Shown: positions 32,905 to 50,206, counted from the first letter of the stretch. The stretch is DNA of 64,000 nt from a bacterium (GCA_004561445.1 SFVX01000001.1:318266-382265); one strand, 5' to 3'. The notes: generated from the sequence alone by a model not told the origin. A program made the numbers and translations.

Positions 32905-33843
32905 TTATAGCTGATTGCCGGCTATAATAACTTCTTTTGGTACGCCTGGCATATTGTGAGTAGTTAGATATGGTTGTGGATATTCGACGATTTGCCAAGT
33001 ATTACCCTGCTTTTTTAGAACGATACGGTAATGAGCAAGAAGTAAATCTTGATCGAAATTGTATTCTTGGATAGTGGTAACGTAATATTCGCCGATTTCC
33101 TGACCTTCACTGACGAGTTTGCTGTTTTCGCCTGATGGGTAACTTTCATTAATGAAAACTTGGGGATTGGAAGCGGTGCTAGCGACTGGGGCTAGGTATG
33201 GGTTATTATTGCCCGAGAAGAAGATTTTATAGGCGGTAAGGTCGTCGTCTTTGCCATAGGTTTTAAGTTTATTTATAGCGGCATCAAGATAAATATCTTT
33301 GGACTTGATATTAATAACTGGGCGTGAGCCTTCTTCCTCATAGTCGTAACTGATGGAATAAAGCGAACTATTGAATGGGAGATGGTTTAAAATAGGGTAT
33401 TTTTCTTTGGTGCGGAGGCCTTCTTCATTAAGATAGACGCCGACGCGACCTTCAACCTCAGTAAATTCCATTTTATGCTTTTCGAGATAAGTTTTTCCTT
33501 CGTCGTCGGAGGCACTAAGGGTACCAAGAAGCTTATTGTGGTCATTATCGATAGTAACCTGTTTTTTAATAGATTCAAAATGATCAAATTTTACTTCAAG
33601 TTCATAATTGCCTGGTGTGATGTAGGAGGTGGATTTATTTTTGATTTTTGTGCCGTTAAGGGTGACTTCGGCGCTATAAGGTGCAAAATAAATATCGGTA
33701 CGGATTTTTCCGGCGCGACTAATGAGGGTGACGACGGAATAAAAAATTGCGATGATTACAAAAAGCCCAAGTAAAAGAAAAGTGAGTTTTTGGCCTTTTG
33801 TAAGATTGTTTTTAATTGTGTTTTGCTTTTTCATATTTACCAT
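32905..33843 (-). CDS. hypothetical bitopic membrane protein (beta-rich ectodomain), T4SS-locus associated
   Basis: 312 aa with one N-terminal TM; overlaps the hydrolase gene by 7 nt. Confidence 0.5.
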   Translation of the reverse strand: MVNMKKQNTIKNNLTKGQKLTFLLLGLFVIIAIFYSVVTLISRAGKIRTDIYFAPYSAEVTLNGTKIKNKSTSYITPGNYELEVKFDHFESIKKQVTIDNDHNKLLGTLSASDDEGKTYLEKHKMEFTEVEGRVGVYLNEEGLRTKEKYPILNHLPFNSSLYSISYDYEEEGSRPVINIKSKDIYLDAAINKLKTYGKDDDLTAYKIFFSGNNNPYLAPVASTASNPQVFINESYPSGENSKLVSEGQEIGEYYVTTIQEYNFDQDLLLAHYRIVLKKQGNTWQIVEYPQPYLTTHNMPGVPKEVIIAGNQL

Positions 33844-36029
33844 CCGTATTTTGCTTTAAAAGTTGACCAAGAGACGCCTTTTTCGACGATGTAAATCCTG
33901 GCGGTGCTACTGGAACCGTATGGGGCTTTATTGTTATCGGAAGGATTTGGAACGTCGTGGAAGATGTCTAAGTCATAATCGCCATCGATCTTCCCTGCTC
34001 CAGTGTCGGTAATGAGGAAATATTTACCGTTGGCGTAGGAGGCTTCGCCGGTAGCTTGAGTTTGGACATAGACGACGGTGCCAAAATCTAGATGGCTACT
34101 AGCGGCTTGGCCTGGAGCGAGTTTGCCATCGTTATAACCGCTGGCATTCTTGCCGGCGTATCCGCCATTTTCGGAGGCGGCGGCGCTATAGAAAGTGACG
34201 TGATGATCTTTAAGTTTTGTTGCGCCAGTTGGAACGGTGTTTGAGACGGTGCCAGAAACGGAGTTGGTATCACTAGAGGTAGTTTCGTATGGATTAAAAT
34301 TTGGATTACGATACCAACGGACAATGGCGCCATTACCAAAGAGAAGATCCTCTTTGCCGGCCATAGGGGCGCGACCGGAGCCGCTGGTTGAATAGGAGGC
34401 GCTAGCAATATTACTGTCGAAGCCGCCAATTTCGCCGACATAAATGAAGGTGTGGCCGCTTGAAAAAGCGACGTCGCCTGGCTGAAGGATACTAGTATCG
34501 ACGCGGGTGCCGGCGGAACTATTGAGAAGTTCCCAGTTATGCGATTTTACCCAAGCTTCTTGAGTATCAGTGCCACCTTTGCCGTCGTTGTAATTTGGTT
34601 CAAGGCCAGAGTTTTGTACAAGAATAGTAACGAAGCCGCCGCAGTCGATACCCGGCACGCCAGCGACGGAGCCGCCGACATAGCGACCTTCGCTGATGGA
34701 TTGAGTGACAGCTTTGGCGTAGTCTGGCATGCGATCATGCCATGGGGCGCTGTGGTAGGTTGGCCAAGCATAGCCTTTGACGAGAGCCTGAAATTCGCCG
34801 TTGACGCTACACCCGTTAGCGTTAGTGTTGCTATTAATAGCCTTAAAGATAGTCTCAGCAAAAAGTTCAGCGCCGGCTTGGTTTGGGTGAATATTATCGC
34901 TAGCAAGATAAAGACCTGGGTCTTGATTTACGGTCTCGGCCCAGTCGGCGATGATGATGTTGGAATTATTTTTTGCGAGTTCTTTAAAATGAGTATTATT
35001 AGTATCGTAAGTGGTGTTTTTGCCGGAATAATTGGTGACAAAAACAATATTATGTTCTGCCCCAAGGAGATTGACTACTTCGTCGATAGCAGCAGCGGAA
35101 AGATTTGGCGAATTGGTGCCAAGTGCAAAGACGACGGTCTTTTTGAAAGTACTTTTGCCGTTTTGGACGATTTGGACACCTTCGCTCCAGGGGCGACTGA
35201 CGCGAGCATTAATGTTGCTAGCGGTGAGGTCTGGGAATTTTTTGAGGAGTGCGTCCTGAGCGCCAACGGTAATAGAATCGCCGATAATGGTAATATTCTT
35301 GCCGGTTTCTTCGGCGGCGGAACCATTAGCGACAGAGGTGCCTTTACCGGCGTATTTATCGAAAAATTCTTGTGCAAAATTGCGACGAGCTTCGGTACCT
35401 TGGTAGAGTTGACCGGCGTAAGGCGAATAATATTGAATAGCGGAGTTTCCGCCAACGGCGCGCTCAAAGAGTGTCAAAAAGATTTCGGCAGCTTCTTGAG
35501 GATTGTTGGTTTTTTTGATTTCGTCTTGCCAGTTGAGGTCTTTCTCGGACATAGTGTGCTCGAGCTCGATTTGGAGAATTTTGTCAAAATCTGCCTCAGG
35601 GATGTTTTTGTCGGCGCCGGAAGCCCAATATTCGCTAGAGAGATATTGTTCGAGGCCGGCGTCTTTAATTTTGTTTTGAAGTGCGACACGGCGTCCACCG
35701 CCCCACTGGAAGAGGCCCCAGAAGCTAGAGTTGCTGGCTCTAGTTGGGCCAAGGCCACTCTCGGCCATGCCGTTGCCGAGGAGACCAGCGGTTTGAGCGT
35801 CGTTAAAGCCCTGCTGGATAAAGAAATTCCAGATTTTTTCAGCAGTATCACTGCCTGATAAGGTGGTAGAGCTATTGTTACAATTATCGGCATTTCCAAC
35901 GGGATTATAGTAGTAAATCCCGTTTTTATTGTACATGTCGAGAATTTCATCAGATGGAACGAGAGCGTTGGCCGGAGAGGTAATAATTAGAGCCATCAGG
36001 ATGGCAAAAATACGAGCTAGCTTTTTCAT
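33837..36029 (-). CDS. secreted multi-domain cell-wall hydrolase (lysozyme-like + SGNH + NlpC/P60-like + 3D/DPBB-like)
   Basis: Signal peptide; ...LLGNGMAESGL...WGLFQWGGGRR...; ...IIGDSITVG...DNIHPN...; ...GIDCGGFV...GHTFIYVG...; ...ITDTGAGKIDGDYDLDIF... Confidence 0.8.
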   Translation of the reverse strand: MKKLARIFAILMALIITSPANALVPSDEILDMYNKNGIYYYNPVGNADNCNNSSTTLSGSDTAEKIWNFFIQQGFNDAQTAGLLGNGMAESGLGPTRASNSSFWGLFQWGGGRRVALQNKIKDAGLEQYLSSEYWASGADKNIPEADFDKILQIELEHTMSEKDLNWQDEIKKTNNPQEAAEIFLTLFERAVGGNSAIQYYSPYAGQLYQGTEARRNFAQEFFDKYAGKGTSVANGSAAEETGKNITIIGDSITVGAQDALLKKFPDLTASNINARVSRPWSEGVQIVQNGKSTFKKTVVFALGTNSPNLSAAAIDEVVNLLGAEHNIVFVTNYSGKNTTYDTNNTHFKELAKNNSNIIIADWAETVNQDPGLYLASDNIHPNQAGAELFAETIFKAINSNTNANGCSVNGEFQALVKGYAWPTYHSAPWHDRMPDYAKAVTQSISEGRYVGGSVAGVPGIDCGGFVTILVQNSGLEPNYNDGKGGTDTQEAWVKSHNWELLNSSAGTRVDTSILQPGDVAFSSGHTFIYVGEIGGFDSNIASASYSTSGSGRAPMAGKEDLLFGNGAIVRWYRNPNFNPYETTSSDTNSVSGTVSNTVPTGATKLKDHHVTFYSAAASENGGYAGKNASGYNDGKLAPGQAASSHLDFGTVVYVQTQATGEASYANGKYFLITDTGAGKIDGDYDLDIFHDVPNPSDNNKAPYGSSSTARIYIVEKGVSWSTFKAKYGW

Positions 36030-38886: not shown

Positions 38887-40689
38887 CTATCTTTTATTTG
38901 AGACTGGATTGGTTGTGATGAGACTTTCTTCGGTGTCGGAAGCCACGATTTGAATGTGGACATGGTTTTGACCAGCAAAGAAGAGGCCTTGTCCAACTGG
39001 GAAGTTAGAAAGACGTTTGCGCTCCTCGTCAGTGAGCTTGAAGACATCAGATAGAACATCAACGGCGGAAGCAGATTGTTTAAGGAGTAATTGCATGGAA
39101 GAGTTTGCAACGATAGCGCGTCCCATTTTGCTACTCATAAAGTCCTCAACATCCTGCGTAATGGTAGTAAGACCGAGGTAGTATTTACGAGCGCGCTTGG
39201 CGAGGCTGAAGAGGAACTTGGCGGAATCTTCGTATTGCATGAGCTGCCAGGCCTCATCAACAATGAGGAGGCGAGGTTTCTTTTGAGCACGAGTAATGTT
39301 CCAAATATGGTTCAGGACGATATACATAGCCACTGGACGAAGTTCATCTTCGAGGTCGCGAATATTAAAGACGACCATTTGGTTGTTGATATCTATATTG
39401 CTCTGCTGGGAAAAGATACCAGCAAAAGTACCAGTAGTATATTTACGTAAACGCTGTGCAAGAGATGGACCGGTGCCACCCATATGAAGCAAAGTATCGA
39501 AAAGATTCATGATGGTTGGTGGAGTGGCGTTGTGAGTAAGTGGATCGTTAGTAATACCGGCACGAGCGTAAGTGTCGATGAGGGCCTGATCAAGATCCGC
39601 TTCTTCGTTTGGACTTAAAGCTGCAGCGGCGCCGCCGAGCATGAGACGGAAAAGACCGTGAAGAGTGGCGAGATTGGCACGCAAGGCGTCATTAGCTTCT
39701 TCTGGATCAACGACTTTTGGCAGGTCGAAAGGATTAATACGGACGTCGGAGCTAAGACTGAGACGAACATAAGCGCCACCAACGGCGTCGGCAAGTTTTT
39801 GATACTCATTTTCTGGGTCGATAATAAGAATTTCGGTGCCGAGCATCATAGAACGCAAGGCTTCGAGCTTGACGGTGAAAGATTTACCAGAACCAGATTT
39901 CGCGAAGACAACCATGTTGGCGTTTTCGAGCGAGAAACGATCAAAAATAACGAGGCCATTATTGTGCATATTAATGCCGTAGAGAATACCTTTTTCCTGC
40001 GTGAGGTCGGCGGAGGTGAATGGAAAACTGGTAGAAATAGCGCCAGTATTCATATTGCGGCGGATTTGGAGTTGGTCGGTACACTGAGGCATAGTAGAAT
40101 TCATGCCCTGCTCTTGCTGCGAAGTAGCGACTTTTGAGAAGACCATTTGCTGACCGAAGATATTTTCGATTTTGTGCTGAACAAACTGAAGTTCATCGAG
40201 CGAATCGGCGTAGATTGTAACGTAGAGGCCATAACGGAAGAATTTTTCGGCACCGACTTGGAGTTGATCGCGAAGGTCTTCAGCATCGGAAATAGCAGCT
40301 TCGAGCTCTGGATCACGAACTTTTCCCTTTTCGGAGTTGACGGACATGCTAGCTTCGAGCTGAGTCACCTTCTTGGTGAGGTTTTTCATGATGATACCAG
40401 TATCAACTGGATAGATGTACATGGAAATATCGAGAACTTCATCGATATTAATGATGGAGCTTAGCCAGCCAGTATAAAGCATACGAGGATAGCCGTAGAC
40501 ATAAATCGTACGGCCGTATTTGGTGCCAAGGCGGAAATAGTCGGAATTAATTTCGATAGATGAAGGCGAAATAAGGTCGCGAAGTGTAGTAATACCGGTT
40601 TCAAATGCTTTTTGAATTTCGACTTCTTCTTGAAGCTGGGATTGCGCGGCGATGTCGGCGGCGCTGAGTTGTTGATTTTTCTTGGCCAT
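38887..40689 (-). CDS. virB4: VirB4-family type IV secretion ATPase (Gram-positive-type, 600 aa)
   Basis: Walker A FAKSGSGKSF and Walker B LLIVDEAWQL. The N-terminal ...YGRTIYVYGYPRMLYTGWL... resembles TcpF/PrgJ/ConE-type VirB4. Confidence 0.85.
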   Translation of the reverse strand: MAKKNQQLSAADIAAQSQLQEEVEIQKAFETGITTLRDLISPSSIEINSDYFRLGTKYGRTIYVYGYPRMLYTGWLSSIINIDEVLDISMYIYPVDTGIIMKNLTKKVTQLEASMSVNSEKGKVRDPELEAAISDAEDLRDQLQVGAEKFFRYGLYVTIYADSLDELQFVQHKIENIFGQQMVFSKVATSQQEQGMNSTMPQCTDQLQIRRNMNTGAISTSFPFTSADLTQEKGILYGINMHNNGLVIFDRFSLENANMVVFAKSGSGKSFTVKLEALRSMMLGTEILIIDPENEYQKLADAVGGAYVRLSLSSDVRINPFDLPKVVDPEEANDALRANLATLHGLFRLMLGGAAAALSPNEEADLDQALIDTYARAGITNDPLTHNATPPTIMNLFDTLLHMGGTGPSLAQRLRKYTTGTFAGIFSQQSNIDINNQMVVFNIRDLEDELRPVAMYIVLNHIWNITRAQKKPRLLIVDEAWQLMQYEDSAKFLFSLAKRARKYYLGLTTITQDVEDFMSSKMGRAIVANSSMQLLLKQSASAVDVLSDVFKLTDEERKRLSNFPVGQGLFFAGQNHVHIQIVASDTEESLITTNPVSNKR

Positions 40690-41541: not shown

Positions 41542-42609
41542 TTAATGTAATGAAATGTATACTTCCCCGTCGTTCTTTTTGTTGATACGTTTAGCTTGTT
41601 GAGCGATAGTTTCAATTGAGAAATCTGAATTGTTGGCGAGATCGATAATGTCCTGGCTTGGTTCAGATTTTGGCTCTGGCGTAGGTTCTGGAGCTGGTTT
41701 TTGGGGTATTTCTTCGGCGATAGGCTGAACAACTACAGAATTGATCTGAGATGTTTCTGGCTCTTGTGGCTCAGTAACTGGAGTTGGTAGTGGTGGTGCA
41801 ACTGGCTGGATTGGCGCAGGATTAATTGGAGCAGAAGTTGGAACGCTGCCTGGAGTTGGTAGATTTGCAGTTGGCGTAAGGTTTGGCGAAAATGGCGCAA
41901 CTGGTGTAGCGGAAAATTGGCCAGGCGCGACAGTGACTTGGCTTGCGGAAGTGATATTTGGCCGAGCGGACTCCGGCTCATTGAATTTATTAATAGTAGC
42001 ACCAGCGGTGCTGAGTGAACGAGAATTATCGATAGCTTGGCGCATCTGAGCGACGAGTTCGTCATGGCGACTATCGGTGTTGTTTTGAAGAGTTTGGGAG
42101 ATATTGTAGCTTTGTGGAGTCTCAAAAATATCTTGAACAGTGCTAGCTTCGGCGTTGATTTCGTCGCTGAGTTGGTTGGTTACGTTGCCCTTAATGGCAT
42201 AACCTTCGGTATCAACAATGTCGGCAAGGAAAGAGAGGCGACGGGAGGCTTCTTCTTCGTTAAGGTTCTTAGTACGGTTTTCTTCAACTTTTTTAGGAGC
42301 GGTAATGACGATAGTGGATTCGGGCTCGCCTGGTTCCCAGAGGCGCTTGTGAGGCTTAGTGTAGTAGGAGATAACAGCGGCGAGATAAGTTTCCATAGGC
42401 TGGTCTTTTTTGAGCGGTAAGGCGAGTATCATCAAAAAGATAATAAAAGGTACTGGAATAATAACTAGAACTGGAAAGATTTTGAAAAGCAAAAAAGCTA
42501 CACCCGCGAGTGCGAAGGCTATCAAAAGGTATATGAACTGACGAAAAGTGAACGGTCCGAGGAGTTTATCTTCTGCCTCGACGTCCTGAGGTACCTTATA
42601 CTGAGCCAT
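41542..42609 (-). CDS. PrgI-family (VirB3-like) membrane protein with long Pro-rich C-terminal extension
   Basis: N-terminus YKVPQDVEAEDKLLGPFTFRQFIYLL followed by two TM helices; about 260 extra residues rich in P/T/Q. Confidence 0.6.
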   Translation of the reverse strand: MAQYKVPQDVEAEDKLLGPFTFRQFIYLLIAFALAGVAFLLFKIFPVLVIIPVPFIIFLMILALPLKKDQPMETYLAAVISYYTKPHKRLWEPGEPESTIVITAPKKVEENRTKNLNEEEASRRLSFLADIVDTEGYAIKGNVTNQLSDEINAEASTVQDIFETPQSYNISQTLQNNTDSRHDELVAQMRQAIDNSRSLSTAGATINKFNEPESARPNITSASQVTVAPGQFSATPVAPFSPNLTPTANLPTPGSVPTSAPINPAPIQPVAPPLPTPVTEPQEPETSQINSVVVQPIAEEIPQKPAPEPTPEPKSEPSQDIIDLANNSDFSIETIAQQAKRINKKNDGEVYISLH

Positions 42610-42676: not shown

Positions 42677-45373
42677 TTAGTCGAGGTCGATGCCGAGCAT
42701 CTTGCGGACTTCTGGGTTCATAGTAGCACGCTGCGAGGTTGCAGATTGCTTGTTGAGGGCGGTGCGCTGGTGTTCGAAGATCTCATAGAATTCGCGACTG
42801 ACGACAGAACCTTCGGCGGTCGTAACGGTATCGCCAGGATTAACATACTGCAAGAATCCATCAAGAGCTTTCATAGTGCCACTCTTTGAGGTAACGAGCT
42901 GACCAGCTGACATATCTTTGAGATAGCTAATAACGTTGTCTTTAATAGCGTCACGGTTGTTATTAAAGAATGCAATCTCTTGAGCATTAGCGGTGCCAGC
43001 TTGGATTTTATCTAAACCACCAGTGAGTAAGGAGTTGATAGTAGCAAGTGTTTCACCATCGACGGTACCGGAAGCGGCAGTTGAGCGGATCTGTTTCATG
43101 GATAGACCAAGGTTGTGTGGATCGCTAATAAGACCCTGGACGCGAAGATCTTGGATAGATTTCCAGAAGGTGCGGTCTTGGGTTTTACCAATGCCTGGAT
43201 CACCGATGTTTGGAATAAGCGTATCGATTCTTACTTTCGCAGCGGCGTTAGCGTCAATATCGCCAGCGAGTGGGGTGCCTTTAATATAGTCGGAAAGATT
43301 GACGTAGGCTTCGATACTTTTCCCTGCTCCGTTCATACCACGGCGCATCATTAAGGCTTTACTCCATGACCATAGCAAGGCGTCGTCTTTCTTCATAGTA
43401 ATAAGAGTATCGGCGAGTTGCTTTTGGACGCGAATATCGTTGGAAATATCGCCAGAGTGTTTGACGAGGACATTTGTAATAGCATCGTAGTCGCCGCGTT
43501 TTGCCATAACTTCGACGGCGGCGGTCATAGAGTTGTAATCTTTAGTCTGGAAGGATTTTTCGAGGTTTTTGCTAATTTCTGGACCAGCAAGCATATCGTT
43601 GTAAAGCTCGGAGTACATACTCTTACTCTCAGCGTCGGCTTTGCGTTTGGCGGCAATGGCATCAGAAAGTACAGCGTTCATGGCGCGGCTAGTAGTGTTT
43701 TGATAGGCCTCACGCTGAGCGTCGGTCATATTAGCGACGGCCGCAGCATCTTGATGTTGATAGTTGAAGCTCTTTGCGACTTGGCGACTAAGTTCAGAGT
43801 CGGCATCTTGGAGACCGGTTTGAATGGTATCGGCGCGACGTTTGAGGTTTTCCATATTAACGACACGCTGGCGACTGGCGTTGATGGCGCTTTGAGCGAT
43901 AGCTTTACTATAACCAGCATTTATGGCATCTACGCGAGCTGCATCGCGAGAGCGGATGTGCGCAGTATCATTTTTGTCGTAACCTTCATCCATGTCGGTA
44001 TTGAATTTAGTAATTATCTCTCCAGCGTTCATGCGAAGTTGAGCGTTGTTGTAGTAGCGCAAACCACGATTATTGAGCTGACCTTTGGAATTGTAGTGGC
44101 TTTGACGATGTTTGGCATTTGCTCTATCGTCGGCGGTTTTCTGCGCATCAGCAAGATCATTGGCGCGGTTAACATTGCGCTGATTGAGATATTGAGCGAG
44201 GCGGGTGCTTGGGCGGTAGCTAGTGCTACTAAGCTGGCGAGCCTTGGCAAGACGACGATTTTCAGCGGAAATACCACGAAGGCGAGTATCGGCTGGTCTG
44301 GCGGCACGGTGGACCATGCCGTCAATGCGGCCAAGGACGGTACCGCTCATACGTAGTAGCGGAATAGACATAAATAGAGGTAGGACCATAACGGCAACGC
44401 CAAGAACGACGCCAAGCCAGTTGGTGGCAGAAGTAATCATAACAAGGCCGGCGAGATTAGAAGCGCCGTAAAGGATGCTAAACATTGGATAAAAGACTAA
44501 CATGCTAATAAAAAGGCTAGTCCATTTTTTGAACCATTTCTCGGTGTTTGGCAAGAGATAGGCGACGAATGCGAGTGGCGAGATCATGACGAGTAAAAGA
44601 ATGAGGGCTTGACGAGCAGCCATAGTGATGAGTGCAGAAATAATGGCGAGTGCGCCAGATAGAATAATAGGAATAAGTAGCCAAATAAGACCGGTGAAGC
44701 CACCGGTGATAGCGAGTGCACCAATAGTGCCAGCTGTGCCGATACCGAGAATCGTAGCGACGATTCCAGCGACGGATGTGCTAGCAGCGGCATCACTGAC
44801 GGAGCCGTTAGCAAGTGCATTTTCGCCGATAGCATCAAAGATAGATCTAAAACCGCCACCCACGATGTTACTGAGATCGACGGCAATAGCACAAATAATA
44901 TAGCTTAGATTGAGAAGGATAGCGGCAATAATAAGTCGCGGGAGCATGCGCTTGATACCGTAATTACTAATCCCCACCCCAGTCATCTGGGAGTAGATAA
45001 TGATAATAAAGACGATAATGAAAGCAATGTTGGCGAGATTACGGAGATATTCCCAGACAACATGAATTGGGGCGTCCTGCTCCATCGAAACTGGTTCGAC
45101 ATTAATAAGCTCGTTTAGAATACCATAAGCGCCATCGATGATATTGGCAAGGAAAGAAGTTCCTGGGCAGACAAGCCAGCCAATACCACCAACTTCGTCA
45201 TAACAGGTAGTTTGTTCTTGATTCTCTTCTTCGGTTTGTTCTTCTTCGGAAGTATCAGGAGTGGGATTAGTATCGTTATCTGATGGGACGGCAAAAACTG
45301 GACCGCTGATTAGGAAGAGGCTGAATGCGGCCGCGAGCAGTATTATACCTAAGCGTTTTAGATACTTACCCAT
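42677..45373 (-). CDS. VirB6/TrbL-like polytopic membrane protein with large hydrophilic C-terminal domain
   Basis: Start revised to ATG 45373 (MGKYLKRLG..., signal peptide). The ORF-track TTG start is itself the -35 box. Acidic linker, about 8 TM helices, then a roughly 500-aa soluble domain. Confidence 0.55.
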   Translation of the reverse strand: MGKYLKRLGIILLAAAFSLFLISGPVFAVPSDNDTNPTPDTSEEEQTEEENQEQTTCYDEVGGIGWLVCPGTSFLANIIDGAYGILNELINVEPVSMEQDAPIHVVWEYLRNLANIAFIIVFIIIIYSQMTGVGISNYGIKRMLPRLIIAAILLNLSYIICAIAVDLSNIVGGGFRSIFDAIGENALANGSVSDAAASTSVAGIVATILGIGTAGTIGALAITGGFTGLIWLLIPIILSGALAIISALITMAARQALILLLVMISPLAFVAYLLPNTEKWFKKWTSLFISMLVFYPMFSILYGASNLAGLVMITSATNWLGVVLGVAVMVLPLFMSIPLLRMSGTVLGRIDGMVHRAARPADTRLRGISAENRRLAKARQLSSTSYRPSTRLAQYLNQRNVNRANDLADAQKTADDRANAKHRQSHYNSKGQLNNRGLRYYNNAQLRMNAGEIITKFNTDMDEGYDKNDTAHIRSRDAARVDAINAGYSKAIAQSAINASRQRVVNMENLKRRADTIQTGLQDADSELSRQVAKSFNYQHQDAAAVANMTDAQREAYQNTTSRAMNAVLSDAIAAKRKADAESKSMYSELYNDMLAGPEISKNLEKSFQTKDYNSMTAAVEVMAKRGDYDAITNVLVKHSGDISNDIRVQKQLADTLITMKKDDALLWSWSKALMMRRGMNGAGKSIEAYVNLSDYIKGTPLAGDIDANAAAKVRIDTLIPNIGDPGIGKTQDRTFWKSIQDLRVQGLISDPHNLGLSMKQIRSTAASGTVDGETLATINSLLTGGLDKIQAGTANAQEIAFFNNNRDAIKDNVISYLKDMSAGQLVTSKSGTMKALDGFLQYVNPGDTVTTAEGSVVSREFYEIFEHQRTALNKQSATSQRATMNPEVRKMLGIDLD

Positions 45374-45383
45374 AGCATTTCTA

Positions 45384-45412
45384 ATTATATCACACATAAG
45401 CTTTTTTGTCAA
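45384..45412 (-). promoter_or_regulatory. consensus promoter TTGACA-17-TATAAT, 10 nt upstream of ATG 45373
   Basis: Both hexamers are perfect on the - strand; no SD. Confidence 0.65.
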
Positions 45413-45467: not shown

Positions 45468-45495
45468 TTGAGTGAGAGGGTTTCTGTTATATAAT
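45468..45495 (+). promoter_or_regulatory. promoter TTGAGT-16-TATAAT for the pilin operon
   Basis: About 28-nt leader with SD GAGGA. The 7-bp inverted repeat ctgttat/ataacag (45484-45516) spans the -10 box and leader. Confidence 0.5.
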
Positions 45496-45523: not shown

Positions 45524-45964
45524 ATGCGCAACAAAATGAACAAATACTTAAAAATCGCTGCGATTGCTGTTTTTGTGGTGTTGGCGGCTGGTTTTGTGAC
45601 GACCGTAGCGACGAGTCCGGCGATGGCGGAATGTGAGACGGCGGTTTTGCCCGATGAATGGTGCGATGGCAACAATGATATTATGGATGTCGTAAAATTT
45701 GTGGTCGGCATGCTAGCTGGTGGTGTCACTTTTATTGGCATTGTTGGTATCGTTATATGTGGCGTAATGTATCTTACGGCGCGCGACAATGAGGCACAGG
45801 TTGCAAAGGCGAAGAAGCGTTTGATAGATGTAATTATTGGTGTGGTGATTTGGGTATTATTTGCGTTTGGAGCGAATGGTATTTTGACGCTTTTGGTGCC
45901 AAAGGCGGAAGGAGTTGAAATTACTGAAATGCAAACTCAGATAATAGATAAGGAAATTGCGTGA
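45524..45964 (+). CDS. T4SS pilin-like protein (TrbC/VirB2-type hairpin), divergent paralog 1
   Basis: Signal peptide ...SPAMA, Cys pair, then two TM helices flanking YLTARDNEAQVAKAKKRL (degenerate motif). Confidence 0.6.
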   Translation: MRNKMNKYLKIAAIAVFVVLAAGFVTTVATSPAMAECETAVLPDEWCDGNNDIMDVVKFVVGMLAGGVTFIGIVGIVICGVMYLTARDNEAQVAKAKKRLIDVIIGVVIWVLFAFGANGILTLLVPKAEGVEITEMQTQIIDKEIA

Positions 45965-46626
45965 TGAAAAAAGTTTTAATCGCTTTTGTAATGCTTTGCT
46001 CCGTGATGCTTGGCTTGGTTATGCCTACGAACCAAGCGGCGGCTTTTAATACGAATTGTACTACGAGGTTCTTGGGTTTACCGGCCTGGTATGATGGATT
46101 GGTTAATACGAGTACCTGCGAGATAGAAAGCCCGGCAAAAGATGAAGCTAAGCTTAGGCAGTTTATCTGGACGGTGGTTGCGAATATTATGGCGCTCGTG
46201 ATGGGTGTGGTTGGATATCTAGCAATCGCATTTGTGATATTTGGTGGTTTTCAGTATTTGACGTCTTCTGGTGATCCTGGAAGAGCCGCCAAAGGTAAGA
46301 AAACGATTACAAATGCGCTTATTGGTACAGTGATTTGTTTGTTAGCTTCAGCGGTTTCGAGTGCAATTTCTGGTATTATAAGGGGCGCTACGAATGGTAC
46401 GGGCACCGCTGGGCAATTCTTTGCTAATCTGTTAAATACTGTGTTTGTTTGGGCGGGAATTTTGTGCGTTATAATGATTGTGATTGCTGGCATAGAGTAT
46501 GCGATTAGTATTGGCAATCCAGGCAAAGTTTCGAAAGCTAAGAACACGATTATGTATGCTGCGATTGGACTTGTAATTATTATTGCTGCAGCTGCGATTG
46601 TTAACTTTGTAGTAGGAGCTGTTTAG
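45964..46626 (+). CDS. tandem double T4SS pilin-like protein, paralog 2
   Basis: Two hairpin modules: ...GGFQYLTSSGDPGRAAKGKKTITNALIG... and ...AGIEYAISIGNPGKVSKAKNTIMYAAIG... ATG 45964 overlaps the upstream TGA; an alternative GTG lies at 45961. Confidence 0.7.
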   Translation: MKKVLIAFVMLCSVMLGLVMPTNQAAAFNTNCTTRFLGLPAWYDGLVNTSTCEIESPAKDEAKLRQFIWTVVANIMALVMGVVGYLAIAFVIFGGFQYLTSSGDPGRAAKGKKTITNALIGTVICLLASAVSSAISGIIRGATNGTGTAGQFFANLLNTVFVWAGILCVIMIVIAGIEYAISIGNPGKVSKAKNTIMYAAIGLVIIIAAAAIVNFVVGAV

Positions 46627-47004
46627 ATGAAGAAGGTATTTTTAGTAATTGCGATATTATTGTCTGGTTTTATGGTAATTAATATGCCAGTGAAAATTTA
46701 TGCAAAAGACTGTGGGGGTGTCCAAGTTGCAGACAAGGCTAATTGCCCTGGTGAGTTTACGGTTCCTGGTGATGGAGAAGGGTCACTTAAGAATTCCGTT
46801 CAAAAAGCCCTGAGTGCTATTTTTGGGATTCTTGGTATTATCGCGGCAGTAGTAATTATTATTGCGGGCGTTCAGTATATGATTTCGGCGGGCGATCCGG
46901 GAAAAGTTGCAACTGCAAAAAAGGCAATTCTCTATGCGATTATCGGACTTATCGTATCTTTGTCGGCGTATGCTATAACAAACTTTATTTTGGGAGCATT
47001 ATAA
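46627..47004 (+). CDS. T4SS pilin-like protein, paralog 3
   Basis: Signal peptide, Cys pair, ...AGVQYMISAGDPGKVATAKKAILYAIIGL...NFILGAL. Confidence 0.7.
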   Translation: MKKVFLVIAILLSGFMVINMPVKIYAKDCGGVQVADKANCPGEFTVPGDGEGSLKNSVQKALSAIFGILGIIAAVVIIIAGVQYMISAGDPGKVATAKKAILYAIIGLIVSLSAYAITNFILGAL

Positions 47005-47008
47005 ATAA

Positions 47009-47308
47009 ATGAATTTATATAAGATAATAGGTTTAGGCATTAAAGACCAGGTTACTGGTGCGGCGAATGGCACTACGGCTCAATCTATTGTTGGCAATGT
47101 AGTGAAGGCGGTTCTTGGCATTGCTGGCGTAATTGCAGTAGTAGTAATTATCATTGGTGGTGTCTTTTATATGACGGCGCAAGGTGATCCGGGAAAAATT
47201 ACAAAGGCCAAGAACTGTATCTTCGGTGGCGTGATTGGGCTCGTGATTTGTTTGTTAGCTTTTGCGATTGTAACTTTTGCGATGAATGCCTTTGCAGGAA
47301 ATATATAA
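47009..47308 (+). CDS. T4SS pilin-like protein, paralog 4 (no obvious signal peptide)
   Basis: 99 aa with ...GGVFYMTAQGDPGKITKAKNCIFGGVIGL...; the N-terminus MNLYKIIGLGIKDQV is not hydrophobic. Confidence 0.6.
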   Translation: MNLYKIIGLGIKDQVTGAANGTTAQSIVGNVVKAVLGIAGVIAVVVIIIGGVFYMTAQGDPGKITKAKNCIFGGVIGLVICLLAFAIVTFAMNAFAGNI

Positions 47309-47312
47309 TCTA

Positions 47313-47340
47313 TCGACAAAAGCTGAAGTTATGGTAAAAT
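47313..47340 (+). promoter_or_regulatory. promoter TCGACA-16-(TGg)TAAAAT for pilin paralog 5
   Basis: Extended -10; leader carries SD AAGGAG. Confidence 0.45.
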
Positions 47341-47377
47341 TAAACTAAAGTTCTTTGGAATTAAAAAAGGAGAAAAA

Positions 47378-47881
47378 ATGAACAAACTAAATAAAATCTT
47401 GAAAGCTGGTGTCTTTGCGGCTTTCTTGGCGGCTGTGATTGCTGGTCCAGTAATGGCAGCAGATTACTCTTGTATTACTGGTGGTACTGGTAAGTATCCA
47501 AACCTTTCTACTAGCGGTGGCGCCGGTACGGAATATCCAAACAAATGTGTCACGATTAATGACGGTGGTAATTATATTACTATCTATGGTAAAGACGCGG
47601 GCGCATGTGCACAGGCCGGTTCTCTTACTAGTGATCCAGATGCTTGTAATAGCCAAGATTTGAATGAGATTATTCATACAATTATTAATACCGTAATCTT
47701 TGTAGTCGGTATGCTCGCCGTAATTATGATTATTCTTGGTGGTGTTAACTATGCAACTTCTCAGGGTGATCCAAACAAGGTTAATAAAGCTAAGAGTACT
47801 ATTATGTATGGTATTATCGGTCTTGTGATTTGTCTCTTGGCGTTTGCAATTGTGAACTTCGTCCTTCAAGCTTTGGCTTAA
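47378..47881 (+). CDS. T4SS pilin-like protein, paralog 5 (4-Cys variable domain)
   Basis: Signal peptide ...GPVMA, four Cys, ...GGVNYATSQGDPNKVNKAKSTIMYGIIGL...NFVLQALA. Confidence 0.7.
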   Translation: MNKLNKILKAGVFAAFLAAVIAGPVMAADYSCITGGTGKYPNLSTSGGAGTEYPNKCVTINDGGNYITIYGKDAGACAQAGSLTSDPDACNSQDLNEIIHTIINTVIFVVGMLAVIMIILGGVNYATSQGDPNKVNKAKSTIMYGIIGLVICLLAFAIVNFVLQALA

Positions 47882-47899
47882 AGATAAGCGATTAATAAA

Positions 47900-47927
47900 T
47901 ACCCTGCTCTATTGCGGGGTATTTTTA
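47900..47927 (+). terminator. intrinsic terminator after pilin paralog 5
   Basis: Stem taccctgc/gcggggta (one G-U pair) followed by TTTTT. Confidence 0.55.
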
Positions 47928-47941
47928 TATGCTTAATATTA

Positions 47942-47950
47942 TGTTAAAAT
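47942..47950 (+). promoter_or_regulatory. extended -10 TGtTAAAAT for pilin paralog 6
   Basis: About 22 nt upstream of ATG 47973, with SD AAGGAG in between. Confidence 0.45.
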
Positions 47951-47972
47951 ATCTTTAGACAAAGGAGAAAAA

Positions 47973-48350
47973 ATGAAAGAAGTAATTAAAAAGATTGGTC
48001 TTGGAATCGCGAGCGTAGCGATGGTTGCTTGCGGTATGACTGCAATTGCGCCGAGTGTATATGCAAGCCCAGTTACTGAGGCTCAAGGTGGCGTATCTGA
48101 TATTACGCCAGCTGGCACAAATACAGACTTGATGGATATTATTAAGACTATCCTCAATACCGTCTTTGTAGTTGTAGGTATTGTAGCGGTTGTTATGATT
48201 ATCCTTGGTGGTATTAATTATGCAACTTCTCAGGGTGATCCTGGAAAGGCCTCAAAGGCTAAGAATACGATTATGTATGCGATTATTGGTCTAGTCGTTA
48301 CTCTACTTGCCTTTGCGGTTGTAAACTTTGTATTAAGCGCACTTGCCTAG
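47973..48350 (+). CDS. T4SS pilin-like protein, paralog 6
   Basis: Signal peptide ...PSVYA, ...GGINYATSQGDPGKASKAKNTIMYAIIGL...NFVLSALA. Confidence 0.7.
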   Translation: MKEVIKKIGLGIASVAMVACGMTAIAPSVYASPVTEAQGGVSDITPAGTNTDLMDIIKTILNTVFVVVGIVAVVMIILGGINYATSQGDPGKASKAKNTIMYAIIGLVVTLLAFAVVNFVLSALA

Positions 48351-48368
48351 GGGAAAATGATTTTAAAA

Positions 48369-48398
48369 ATATCTCACCAACTTGGTGAGATATTTTTT
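48369..48398 (+). terminator. intrinsic terminator after pilin paralog 6
   Basis: 11-bp stem atatctcacca/tggtgagatat followed by TTTTTT. Confidence 0.7.
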
Positions 48399-48445
48399 AG
48401 GTGAGTGCTTTAGGGCTTTGTATTTAGAATCTTTGAACTGTGAAC

Positions 48446-48476
48446 TAAAATATCTCCGCAGGATATGCGGAGATAT
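48446..48476 (-). terminator. intrinsic terminator after hsp20
   Basis: Stem tatctccgca/tgcggagata followed by TTTT on the - strand. Confidence 0.6.
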
Positions 48477-48480
48477 TGGA

Positions 48481-48993
48481 TTAGTTGACGAGAATGCGTT
48501 TTTTTGCTTCGGTCTTCTCTTTTTCGAAGGAGACGGTAAGGACGCCATCCTTAAGGACTGCTTCGACGCCATCTTCTTTGACCTGAACTGGTAAAGCGAT
48601 AGTGCGGCTAAATTCGCCCCAGTAGCATTCTTGAATGTGCCATTGAACGACTTTATCGTCTTCGCTGCCGCTAAGAACGCCAGAGATGGTTAAGATATTG
48701 TCTGAGATAGAAACATCGAGATCTTTGCGTTCAATACCTGCGGTGCGGGCTTTGATGATAAGTTTGTCTGCAGTTTCATAGACGTCAACAGCGAGCTGAC
48801 CTGGGATATCCTCGTCTTCATCCCAATCGTCGTCAGCGACTTCTTCTTCGTAGATTTGCTCTGTGACTGCGTTTTGAGTGTCGACAGGAGTATCCACCGG
48901 TTCCTCTTCGACTAACATGTCGCCACTATTGTCATCCATGAAGGCAGCGGCGAGCTCGTCATCTAAGCTCATCTCGTCTTGTTTTCGAGCCAT
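48481..48993 (-). CDS. Hsp20/alpha-crystallin family small heat-shock protein
   Basis: Acidic N-terminus followed by the ACD: ...DVYETADKLIIKARTAGIERKDLDVSI...GEFSRTIALP...AVLKDGVLTVSFEK. Confidence 0.9.
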   Translation of the reverse strand: MARKQDEMSLDDELAAAFMDDNSGDMLVEEEPVDTPVDTQNAVTEQIYEEEVADDDWDEDEDIPGQLAVDVYETADKLIIKARTAGIERKDLDVSISDNILTISGVLSGSEDDKVVQWHIQECYWGEFSRTIALPVQVKEDGVEAVLKDGVLTVSFEKEKTEAKKRILVN

Positions 48994-49091
48994 AATAAAT
49001 ATTTTCCTCCACTATTTACACTCTTAAGCTTTATTATAGAGAGCGTTTCTAATAAAATCAAGAAAAAAGAGGAGGTGTTGTAAAAAATACA

Positions 49092-49742
49092 ATGAATATT
49101 AGTCTGGCGGAGTTGTTTTGTCCTCACCACTGTATTTCTTGCGGTAAAATTGGCGGAATTTTGTGTGAGTGTTGTAAAAAATACATTTTAGATGAACGAA
49201 AGCTGAATTGTCTAAAATGTGGTGCGGAATTAATACATGAAAAATGCGTAAGATGCGACGCATTGCCCTGTTTGCAATTTTATGTAGGAAAGCGTAAGGG
49301 TGCACTTAAGAGTTTAATTAATAATTATAAATATAATTCGGTGCGAGCGTGCGGAGATGTACTAGCAGAGCTGTTGGCGGAATGTATTAATATCGAGTCA
49401 GCGGTTGTCGTTCCCCTGCCAACGATAGGAAAGCATGTGCGGGAGCGTGGCTTTGACCATACAAAGTTGTTGGCACGGAAATTAGTAAGACTAAAAGAAT
49501 GAAAATATGAATGCGTGATAGAGCGCGCAAATAATACAGTGCAGGTGGGTGCATCGAACGAAAAGCGCAAAGTACAGGCGAAGGAAGCGTATATTGTGAG
49601 ACAAAAACTCGATCCGCTTAAAACATATATACTACTTGATGACGTTTGGACGACGGGCAGTAGTATGATGGCGGCATATGAAAAAATCTTCCAGGCGGGG
49701 GCCCGGAAGATTGTGATCGCAGTAATTGCTAAGAGTGGATAA
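49092..49742 (+). pseudogene. comFC: ComF-family phosphoribosyltransferase-like protein interrupted by one in-frame TGA (49500-49502)
   Basis: The ORFs 49092-49502 and 49515-49742 are in the same frame. N-terminal Cys4 zinc ribbon, ...RERGFDH..., C-terminal PRT motif YILLDDVWTTGSS. Confidence 0.75.
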
Positions 49743-49744
49743 GA

Positions 49745-50146
49745 TTAAGCGGTAGTTCCACCAACAGCATTGATGACAAAGTTTACGATGGCGTAAGCTA
49801 GCAAGGCGATGATGAGGCCGATAATCGCGTACATGATGGTGTTTTTGGCGTCGGTAACTTTGGAGCTGTTGCCGCCGGAAATAACGTAACGGAAGCCGCC
49901 ATAGATAAGCATGATAACAGAAATGATACCAACAGCGTAAAGAATAGTGTTTACAATCTGAGTAAAGACGCCGTTGACGCCGATAAGTTCGGCTGGCATA
50001 CCGTTGCCACGAGCCATCTCTGCTCCGGCCTGGGCTGGATTTTTGAGATCGGCCATACCGCTAGCCATTACACGTCCAGCAAATAGTACGACGGCGGTGC
50101 TGGCGCCGGTGAGGATTTGGCTGGTTTTGACAATAAGTTTCTTCAT
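49745..50146 (-). CDS. T4SS pilin-like protein, paralog 7 (opposite strand)
   Basis: Signal peptide ...GRVMA, ...GGFRYVISGGNSSKVTDAKNTIMYAIIGL...NFVINAV. Confidence 0.7.
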   Translation of the reverse strand: MKKLIVKTSQILTGASTAVVLFAGRVMASGMADLKNPAQAGAEMARGNGMPAELIGVNGVFTQIVNTILYAVGIISVIMLIYGGFRYVISGGNSSKVTDAKNTIMYAIIGLIIALLAYAIVNFVINAVGGTTA

Positions 50147-50177: not shown

Positions 50178-50206
50178 ATTATACATTATTATAAAATAAT
50201 TGACAA
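50178..50206 (-). promoter_or_regulatory. promoter TTGTCA-17-TATAAT for pilin paralog 7
   Basis: Read on the - strand; about 25-nt leader with AAGGA SD. Confidence 0.45.

Follow-up and report, generated by a model that had tools for sequence, protein, structure and literature searches.

Our main finding concerns seven small genes, named P1 to P7 in order, in a 64,000 nt stretch of DNA (GCA_004561445.1 SFVX01000001.1:318266-382265). This stretch is hereafter called the window, and all coordinates are counted from its start. The genome is that of a Candidatus Nanosyncoccaceae species (Saccharibacteria). We think it quite probable that the seven genes are an array of VirB2-like pilins, belonging to a type IV secretion system (T4SS), that is homologous to the array of Southlakia epibionticum ML1 (Wang et al. 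2023, Cell; PMC10633639) and consists of non-redundant subunits. Non-redundant subunits are favoured because the orthologue families are conserved, selection is purifying, the seven genes are intact in 22 strains, and the Southlakia genes are individually essential. Locations of the genes, and of other features mentioned below, are listed in Table 1.

An original prediction, for the same DNA, had read the genes as paralogous T4SS pilins. All seven open reading frames (ORFs) are confirmed by ORF listing. Note that the lister begins P2 at a GTG, 3 nt upstream of the true start, which is the ATG at 45964. Every protein scores above the gathering cut-off of the Pfam family PF18895, T4SS_pilin (26.6 bits for the whole protein; observed range 27.5-88.8 bits, with P1 lowest). 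Hence, the failure to match such profiles, which the prediction had allowed for, did not occur. The NCBIfam model NF045849, for a pilin-like conjugal transfer protein, recognises P2-P6 (44-63 bits, cut-off 40), with P1 and P7 under the cut-off. For PF04956, the TrbC family (cut-off 27.9 bits), P1 scores 30.0 bits. Scores for P5 (26.3), P4 (20.6), P3 (19.9), and P6 (14.9) are under the cut-off, and P2 and P7 have no match. A hidden Markov model (HMM) built from the window's own modules matches exactly P1-P7, and no other ORF in the window. Overall, identity as VirB2/TrbC-type pilins is backed by the profile scores, the predicted topology, and linkage to genes for VirB4, PrgI/VirB3, and a VirB6-like protein. 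Mean identity between the paralogs is 24% over their full length and 40% in the module; the modules of P5 and P6 are 74% identical. Pilins of type IV pili were also considered. These are ruled out by the ordinary type-I signal peptides, and all family matches are to T4SS pilins.

The proteins share a common plan, with exceptions. The original prediction gave all seven the same hairpin module followed by an Asn-Phe-Val (NFV) tail. The hairpin is indeed present in each case. However, in P1 the loop is ARDNEAQVAKAKK, in place of GDPGKxxKAK, and the NFV tail is missing; the protein instead has a 20-aa acidic C-terminal extension. The C-terminus of P4 is TFAMNAF. Furthermore, P2 contains the complete hairpin module twice: Pfam matches it in two stretches, and an AlphaFold2 (AF2) model, with a predicted local distance difference test (pLDDT) score of 79.8, has four long helices (residues 61-99, 105-143, 149-181, and 186-219). 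Therefore, there are eight modules across the seven genes. The AxA-type signal cleavage site, likewise attributed to all seven, survives as a type-I signal peptide in six. Those of P1, P2, P3, P5, and P6 are typical, with n-h-c organisation and ends AMA, AAA, IYA, VMA, or VYA. By hydropathy, the P7 signal peptide is only weakly hydrophobic. The same analysis indicates no signal peptide for P4, where about 24 hydrophilic residues precede the first helix.

Between the signal peptide and the module, the N-terminal segments contain 2, 2, 2, 0, 4, 0, and 0 cysteines in P1 to P7, so the predicted set of 0, 2, or 4 is correct. Charge counts indicate that these segments are net acidic, while the interhelix loops are short and net basic. 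The positive-inside rule then predicts a cytoplasmic loop, with both termini outside, as is known for VirB2 and TraA in the membrane. A leader, followed by two hydrophobic helices with a short basic loop, is the pattern of VirB2/TrbC/TraA pilins, to which P4, lacking a leader, is the exception. In AF2 models, P5 and P2 form long helical hairpins. The P5 N-domain is predicted to be a beta-hairpin with short helices (pLDDT 77.6).

A different role has been proposed for such proteins. In Nanosynbacter lyticus TM7x, the same block was read as Ptx-like Sec-secreted effectors (McLean et al. 2020, Cell Rep; PMC7427843). A transcriptome paper published afterwards refers to 'putative effectors'. The small Sec-signal proteins would then be effector or toxin subunits, secreted through the T4SS. 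A signal peptide in 6 of the 7 proteins is consistent with this. However, the mature proteins are dominated by two transmembrane (TM) helices, or four for P2, and all match the pilin family while none matches a toxin family. We consider an effector role highly improbable. Soluble subunits, like those of pertussis toxin, do not fit the 2-4 TM helices and the lack of any toxin family match.

We next consider conservation. A VirB4 query, against species-representative genomes, identified 80 Saccharibacteria loci. The best of these is a metagenome-assembled genome labelled 'Candidatus Nanosyncoccaceae bacterium', with about 95-96% DNA identity to the window, and therefore represents another strain, either of the same species or of a sister one. 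An array of 3-7 pilin ORFs (5-8 modules) occupies the same place in about 65 of the 80 loci. A two-module gene is second in the array in nearly all of these 65 or so loci, and two loci have a three-module gene. Across species, P2 and P7 are recognisable over their full length, including the N-terminal segments; for P7, such orthologues are found in most related species. The same is true of P1 and P5 in nearer relatives. Conversely, P3, P4, and P6 match other species through the module only. Database searches returned at least 120 full-length homologues for P5, and at least 120 for P2. In the P5 family (68 sequences) residues C32, C57, and C77 are invariant, and C90 is conserved in at least 90%. 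Across the P2 family, C32 never varies and C52 hardly does. Mean pairwise identity for the N-domain and the module is 41% versus 74% in the P5 family, and 48% versus 58% in the P2 family. Judged from these alignments, the N-terminal segments are less conserved than the modules, yet are not random. The original description of them as unrelated holds between paralogs. It does not hold within the P5 and P2 orthologue families, where they can be aligned and have invariant cysteines. The paralogs are old and distinct rather than recent copies, and P1, P2, P5, and P7 each have an orthologue family of their own. As a separate observation, some related species have P1-like (TrbC-like) genes whose N-terminal regions are much longer (260-350 aa) and rich in Cys, Ser, and Asn (L008 3933-4715, L016 3742-4653, and L073 20725-21777). 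Hence, the first pilin of the array can gain large extracellular domains.

Differences between strains are unevenly distributed. Compared with the closest representative, P4-P7 are 95-99% identical at the protein level. The equivalent values are 86% for P1 (43% in its C-terminal tail), 77% for P2, and 72% for P3. At the DNA level, identity is 67-81% at around 45700-47000 and 95-97% elsewhere. The synonymous divergence (dS, Nei-Gojobori method) is approximately 1.35-1.40 for P2 and P3, compared with 0.05-0.33 for the other five genes. The ratio of nonsynonymous to synonymous divergence (dN/dS), a check suggested by the original prediction, is 0.02-0.37 over the seven genes, and 0.11-0.16 for P2 and P3, indicating purifying selection. 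Positive selection of point mutations is therefore ruled out as the source of P2 and P3 divergence, because dS is saturated and dN/dS is low. The numbers show a case of allele replacement, in which the incoming sequence is deeply diverged and under purifying selection, rather than one of faster amino-acid change.

About 2,400 assembly blocks are indexed for P5 and P7 proteins identical to those of the window, so the species is one that is assembled very often. We compared 22 strain-level loci. Note that these are metagenome assemblies, in which mixing of strains could make chimaeras. All seven ORFs are intact in 22 of 22 loci, which rules out the scenario, raised by the original prediction, of some paralogs being pseudogenes with disabling mutations. 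P5 and P7 are nearly invariant (99.4-100% and 99.2-100% identical, respectively). In contrast, P1, P2, and P3 occur as two allelic cassettes that are about 27% divergent in DNA, on a backbone that is 96-99% identical; between allele types, P3 is 70-72% identical. The cassette found in the window (P1/P2/P3 of 146/220/125 aa) is present in 19 strain loci, and the other (150/224/124 aa) in 2. The remaining locus, L094, has P1 and P2 of the second (B) type with P3 of the first (A) type. Locus L090 has a B-type cassette on an A-type backbone. Here, the flanks are 97.8-98.6% identical to the window and the cassette 73.6%; the same cassette is 96.7% identical to the other representative. Informative sites place the L090 switch points at about 44550-44700, in the VirB6-like gene, and at 47040-47050, at the P3/P4 boundary. 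By these patterns, L090 and L094 look like recombinants between cassette types. The two allele classes are robust, and independent of the mosaics. Strain-level allelic variation is confined to P1-P3. This concentration of variation points to a constant core (P4-P7) and an exchangeable set of surface, or host-contact, proteins. We also note that the L090 tract reaches the 5' part of the divergent VirB6-like gene (44550-45412). Variation in the exposed N-terminal region of VirB6 may therefore go along with the allele type of P1-P3.

The arrangement of the genes bears on how they are expressed. As originally described, P1-P4 are translationally coupled. The junctions are TGATG (45962-45966), TAG-ATG (46624-46629), and TAA-ATAA-ATG (47002-47011, a 4-nt gap), and a GGAG-like Shine-Dalgarno sequence precedes the start at each. 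Indeed, every paralog has a start codon and a Shine-Dalgarno sequence. Promoter-like sites were found upstream of P1, P5, and P7, while P6 has an extended -10-like element only. These promoter calls are only suggestive, because the region contains 17 such sites compared with 13.3 +/- 4.0 in shuffled sequence, which is not above expectation. Terminator-like hairpins follow P5, P6, and P7. The promoter and terminator scan overlooked those of P5 and P6, and folding then confirmed both. Folding revealed no structure between P4 and P5 (z = 0.2), so P5 may share a transcript with P1-P4. Hence, of the promoter, Shine-Dalgarno sequence, and terminator assigned originally to each of P5, P6, and P7, the last two stand in all three cases. 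The promoters fare less well, with sites for P5 and P7 that are no more frequent than in shuffled DNA, the weaker element at P6, and P5 perhaps co-transcribed. The likely transcription units would be P1-P4 (possibly continuing into P5, which has its own promoter-like site), P6, and P7.

Separate control could mean that the genes make up a repertoire, with one or a few paralogs in use at a time and the others as alternatives, that serves phase variation, antigenic variation, or switching of host range. The promoter-like sites and terminators of P5, P6, and P7 fit this idea, with the proviso that P6 has the extended -10-like element only. The VirB2 paralogs of Bartonella and Anaplasma have been interpreted in this way (PMC12102498), and the TM7x array genes shift expression between infection phases, according to the transcriptome paper. 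However, coupling of P1-P4 predicts that these genes are co-expressed. Similarly, old orthologue families under purifying selection, and the individual essentiality of six operon pilins in Southlakia (PMC10633639), are not expected of a repertoire. We therefore regard this explanation as distinctly unlikely. One version of it, antigenic variation from silent cassettes, does not match what the window contains. All seven ORFs are complete, with a start codon and Shine-Dalgarno sequence, and the window has no silent, promoterless, or partial copies. Given the age, individual conservation, and co-translation of the paralogs, we favour a structure of several subunits over a set of interchangeable ones.

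How might such subunits work? In the model we favour, Sec/YidC would insert the proteins so that N- and C-termini are outside and the K-rich loop is cytoplasmic, as for VirB2 and TraA. VirB4, VirB3, and VirB6 would then pull the hairpins from the membrane to build a pilus, or a conduit spanning the cell wall. If F and T pili are a guide, the lumen would be lined by the conserved basic loop. The paralog-specific N-terminal segments would be on the outer surface, stabilised by disulfides in P1, P2, P3, and P5. The assembly could comprise a major subunit with specialised or minor subunits, or be a heteropolymer. P1-P3 would be the strain-variable exposed part, with P4-P7 the constant core, and the P1-P2-P3 cassettes would be exchanged by homologous recombination. 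Our confidence in any specific filament geometry is considerably lower than in the reading as a whole.

The hairpins might also be T4SS parts that never form an extracellular pilus. Instead, within or just outside the cytoplasmic membrane, they could make a hetero-oligomeric ring or pore, resembling a c-ring, or a short stalk through the cell wall, and so provide the translocation channel of a monoderm T4SS. Monoderm T4SSs are generally described in the literature as pilus-less, and NCBIfam ties P2-P6 to a pilin-like protein of integrative and conjugative elements (ICEs) in wall-less Mycoplasma. The weak structural neighbours include ATP-synthase subunit c, both by Foldseek and in Table S2 of PMC10633639. 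In addition, a membrane assembly of fixed stoichiometry suits the covalently joined modules of P2, and the proteins elsewhere that have as many as 17, at least as well as a helical filament does. Conversely, the structured extracytoplasmic N-domains, predicted to contain disulfides, and the strain-variable cassettes suggest exposure to the outside, and the family is related by profile to true pilins. On balance, we consider a channel without a pilus unlikely.

Several points count against a pilin array of non-redundant subunits. No pilus has been observed on any Saccharibacterium, or reported for any Patescibacterium, and the array proteins have not been localised. We infer the fibre orientation, with the loop in the lumen and the N-terminus outside, by transfer from Gram-negative pili. 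P1 alone reaches the cut-off of the classical TrbC/VirB2 family. Foldseek comparison of the P5 and P2 AF2 models with the PDB found no VirB2 or TraA at E <= 0.001, and only non-significant helical bundles; note that helical hairpins carry little information for structure searches of this type. Sequence searches of the PDB (HMM and phmmer), using the paralog alignment, P1, and the P5 family, returned nothing meaningful and no sequence-related solved structure. Indeed, it seems that no structure has been solved for any PF18895 protein. Essentiality of upstream operon genes, as measured by transposon-insertion sequencing (Tn-seq), can reflect polar effects. Finally, the apparent recombinants may be chimaeras of metagenome assembly.

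The two-module P2 belongs to a larger group of proteins. A profile of the eight modules matched 79,112 representative clusters at E <= 0.001. Those that rank highest are single chains in which one signal peptide is followed by 3-17 hairpin modules in tandem (P0241-P0384). In these tandem-module proteins, a cysteine-containing linker lies ahead of each module. One, with six modules, is encoded inside a pilin array (L097 1777-3435). A 17-module protein (L096 8001-13328) is from a contig that also encodes ribosomal protein L39e. Since L39e is an archaeal/eukaryotic family, the contig is probably archaeal. The 16 kb locus around this 17-module protein contains no T4SS genes. Among such tandem-hairpin polypeptides, the two-module P2 of the window is the smallest.

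Taken together, these observations allow a more speculative proposal. Within this one, very widespread species, the T4SS surface structure may combine constant P4-P7 proteins with exchangeable P1-P2-P3 alleles, which reassort by homologous recombination with crossovers in the conserved hairpin modules. The cassette would then be a serotype-like determinant of the host bacterium open to a given strain, or permit escape from recognition by host or phage. P2 would be the smallest member of a wider, and apparently undescribed, class of multi-hairpin proteins with up to 17 modules. We offer this joint interpretation tentatively, and judge it rather less probable than its being wrong in some part. 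The T4SS is among the few machines that Saccharibacteria need to live on host bacteria. Hence, if the cassette sets host specificity, it would provide a genetic handle on the matching of epibiont and host in a lineage that is very difficult to study.

The array sits beside a monoderm-type T4SS operon, located upstream on the minus strand (Table 1). Among the known ATPase-type proteins of this operon, the sole canonical Walker A motif is in VirB4. For the VirB6-like gene, the Southlakia counterpart, SEML1_0013, is annotated TrbL/VirB6 by structure (PMC10633639). The dnaA, dnaN, and recF genes are about 3 kb past the operon (28.9-32.8 kb). No relaxase, coupling protein, or integrase was found among 38 ORFs scanned in the window. 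We conclude that this T4SS is a conserved, origin-proximal, chromosomal system of Saccharibacteria, related to the monoderm MPF-FATA class.

Table 1. Pilin genes, candidate regulatory sites, and neighbouring genes in the window.
Feature	Coordinates	Strand	Evidence or remarks
P1, 146 aa: signal peptide (AMA, then E), 2-Cys segment, divergent TrbC/VirB2-like hairpin, acidic C-tail	45524..45964	+	PF04956 30.0 bits and PF18895 27.5 bits
P2, 220 aa: signal peptide, 2-Cys segment, hairpin module twice in tandem, with 4 TM helices in all	45964..46626	+	PF18895 88.8 bits, 2 stretches
P3, 125 aa: signal peptide, 2-Cys segment, hairpin module	46627..47004	+	PF18895 55.2 bits
P4, 99 aa: lacks signal peptide; ~24 hydrophilic N-terminal residues, then hairpin module	47009..47308	+	PF18895 53.0 bits; only two hydrophobic stretches by hydropathy
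P5, 167 aa: signal peptide, 66-aa 4-Cys N-domain, hairpin module	47378..47881	+	PF18895 53.0 bits
P6, 125 aa: signal peptide, Cys-free segment, hairpin module	47973..48350	+	PF18895 53.4 bits
P7, 133 aa: weak signal peptide, Cys-free segment, hairpin module; separate and convergent, past Hsp20 and ComF	49745..50146	-	PF18895 43.9 bits
Promoter-like site upstream of P1, TTGAGT-16-TATAAT, 10/12	45468..45495	+	Consensus match only
Promoter-like site upstream of P5, TCGACA-16-TAAAAT with TG, 10/12	47313..47340	+	Consensus match only
Promoter-like site upstream of P7, TTGTCA-17-TATAAT, 11/12	50178..50206	-	Consensus match
Terminator-like hairpin and U-run after P5	47897..47930	+	-21.6 kcal/mol, z = -5.5
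Terminator-like hairpin and U-run after P6	48365..48402	+	-18.5 kcal/mol, z = -5.6
Terminator-like hairpin after P7, within convergent comF-like ORF	49679..49712	-	-20.6 kcal/mol, z = -5.1
PEGA protein, T4SS operon		-	
Cell-wall hydrolase, Phage_lysozyme2 and GDSL, VirB1-like role	33837..36029	-	Family match
925-aa protein, T4SS operon		-	Without family match
VirB4-type ATPase	38887..40689	-	PF19044 99.7 bits and AAA_10
TraC-like protein, 279 aa	40693..41532	-	Precomputed PF26593 in sister strains
PrgI (VirB3-like) protein	41542..42609	-	PF12666 52.3 bits
VirB6-like polytopic membrane protein, 906-911 aa, divergent from pilin array	42677..45412	-	Precomputed PF19590 TrbL_3 (weak), same protein in sister strains
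Hsp20, synteny marker between P6 and P7	48481..48993	-	Southlakia SEML1_0020 at same position
ComF(C)-like gene with in-frame TGA at 49500-49502, synteny marker	49092..49742	+	SEML1_0021 (K02242) at same position

On the other side of the array, the gene following P7 is a tRNA-Ser. The in-frame TGA of the ComF-like gene is also present in the sister strain L001, and a different stop occurs nearby in L006. The gene is unbroken (216 aa) in strain L094, and has a Trp codon at the equivalent position in L022. Hence the TGA looks, on comparison of these strains, like a species-level nonsense polymorphism, in a gene whose Southlakia counterpart is non-essential. Base composition was also recorded. 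The G+C content rises from 0.38-0.41 (20-34 kb) to 0.44-0.49 over the T4SS operon (34-46 kb). Between 2 and 64 kb, every 2-kb bin has a positive GC skew, with no sign change at dnaA-dnaN-recF. Therefore, unless skew carries no information in this genome, the origin of replication lies somewhere other than dnaA.

Arrays related to the one described here are known from several systems. One comparison is with the virB2 tandem of Anaplasma phagocytophilum and the trwL tandem of the Bartonella Trw system. In these cases too, several diverged VirB2-type pilins serve one T4SS, and are thought to diversify the exposed surface. Both organisms are diderm pathogens that live inside animal cells, and their systems have an outer-membrane core complex. 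The window organism, in contrast, is monoderm and lives as an epibiont on bacteria; its machine is FATA-like, and its paralogs are apparently non-redundant. The proteins of family NF045849 (the Mbov_0395 family of Mycoplasma ICEs) are, like those of the window, two-helix pilin-like proteins of a monoderm T4SS. Unlike these, the window genes form an array and are not on an ICE, as judged by the absence of a relaxase, coupling protein, or integrase from the ORFs scanned. As an additional observation, P2-P6 (45964-47881) exceed the cut-off of this Mycoplasma ICE family. This suggests that VirB2-like hairpins do occur in monoderm (MPF-FATA, Tenericutes) T4SSs, although the literature generally states otherwise. 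The relationship also bears on whether Patescibacteria pilins were co-opted or inherited with the machine. Our literature search for the Mycoplasma families Mbov_0395 and MMCAP2_0565 found nothing useful, and a Gracilibacteria metaproteomics paper contained no pilin-level evidence.

Within Saccharibacteria, the window array resembles the 'Sec-secreted array' of TM7x, which consists of 4-6 small signal-peptide proteins, is flanked by VirB4 and VirB6, and is conserved across the group. Here, the two-TM hairpin and the pilin profile matches argue against the Ptx-like reading. The likeness to Southlakia ML1 rests on gene order and PF18895 membership. When compared with Tables S1 and S2 of that study, the order is the same: a VirB6-like gene (-), six pilins (+), Hsp20 (-), ComF (+), tRNA-Ser, and a convergent seventh pilin. 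Both loci are origin-proximal, and both operons lack a relaxase or coupling protein. In Southlakia, SEML1_0014-0019 are the six PF18895 genes (+), each scored GD/ES/ES by Tn-seq and needed individually for growth as an epibiont; SEML1_0024 is the separate seventh pilin (-), which is non-essential, as is the ComF gene (+) between the pilin block and tRNA-Ser (PMC10633639). There are also differences. The window organism belongs to another family, Nanosyncoccaceae, and its second pilin gene has two recognised modules. The window proteins are 146/220/125/99/167/125/133 aa long, compared with 132/185/103/126/127/138/144 aa in Southlakia. Finally, P7 lies ahead of tRNA-Ser, whereas its Southlakia counterpart is past the tRNA and one further gene.

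A further comparison is with a survey of 3,035 Patescibacteria genomes, which catalogued 441 arrays of 2-11 VirB2-like pilins in 383 assemblies (Quinonero-Coronel et al. 2025, Microb Genom; PMC12102498). Mean identity within arrays is 25%. They are most abundant in Saccharimonadia, often lie near dnaA, and were compared by the authors with the VirB2 arrays of Bartonella and Anaplasma (PMC12102498). The window array, with seven genes and a mean identity of 24%, is similar. Hence the premise of the original prediction, that one T4SS normally has a single pilin, does not hold, since multi-pilin arrays are documented in Patescibacteria, Bartonella, and Anaplasma (PMC12102498). Surface variation, host-range adaptation, and a heteropolymeric fibre, which it proposed, are speculations already in the literature. 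We conclude that the window array is a further example of a described Saccharibacteria/Patescibacteria system, and nothing new in kind, because its gene order matches the essential Southlakia locus and such arrays were catalogued in 2025. We found no mention, in the 2025 survey (PMC12102498), of multi-module pilins, orthologue structure within arrays, or allelic cassettes within a species. What the window adds to the known arrays is a modest new angle, namely recombining P1-P3 cassettes and multi-module pilins.

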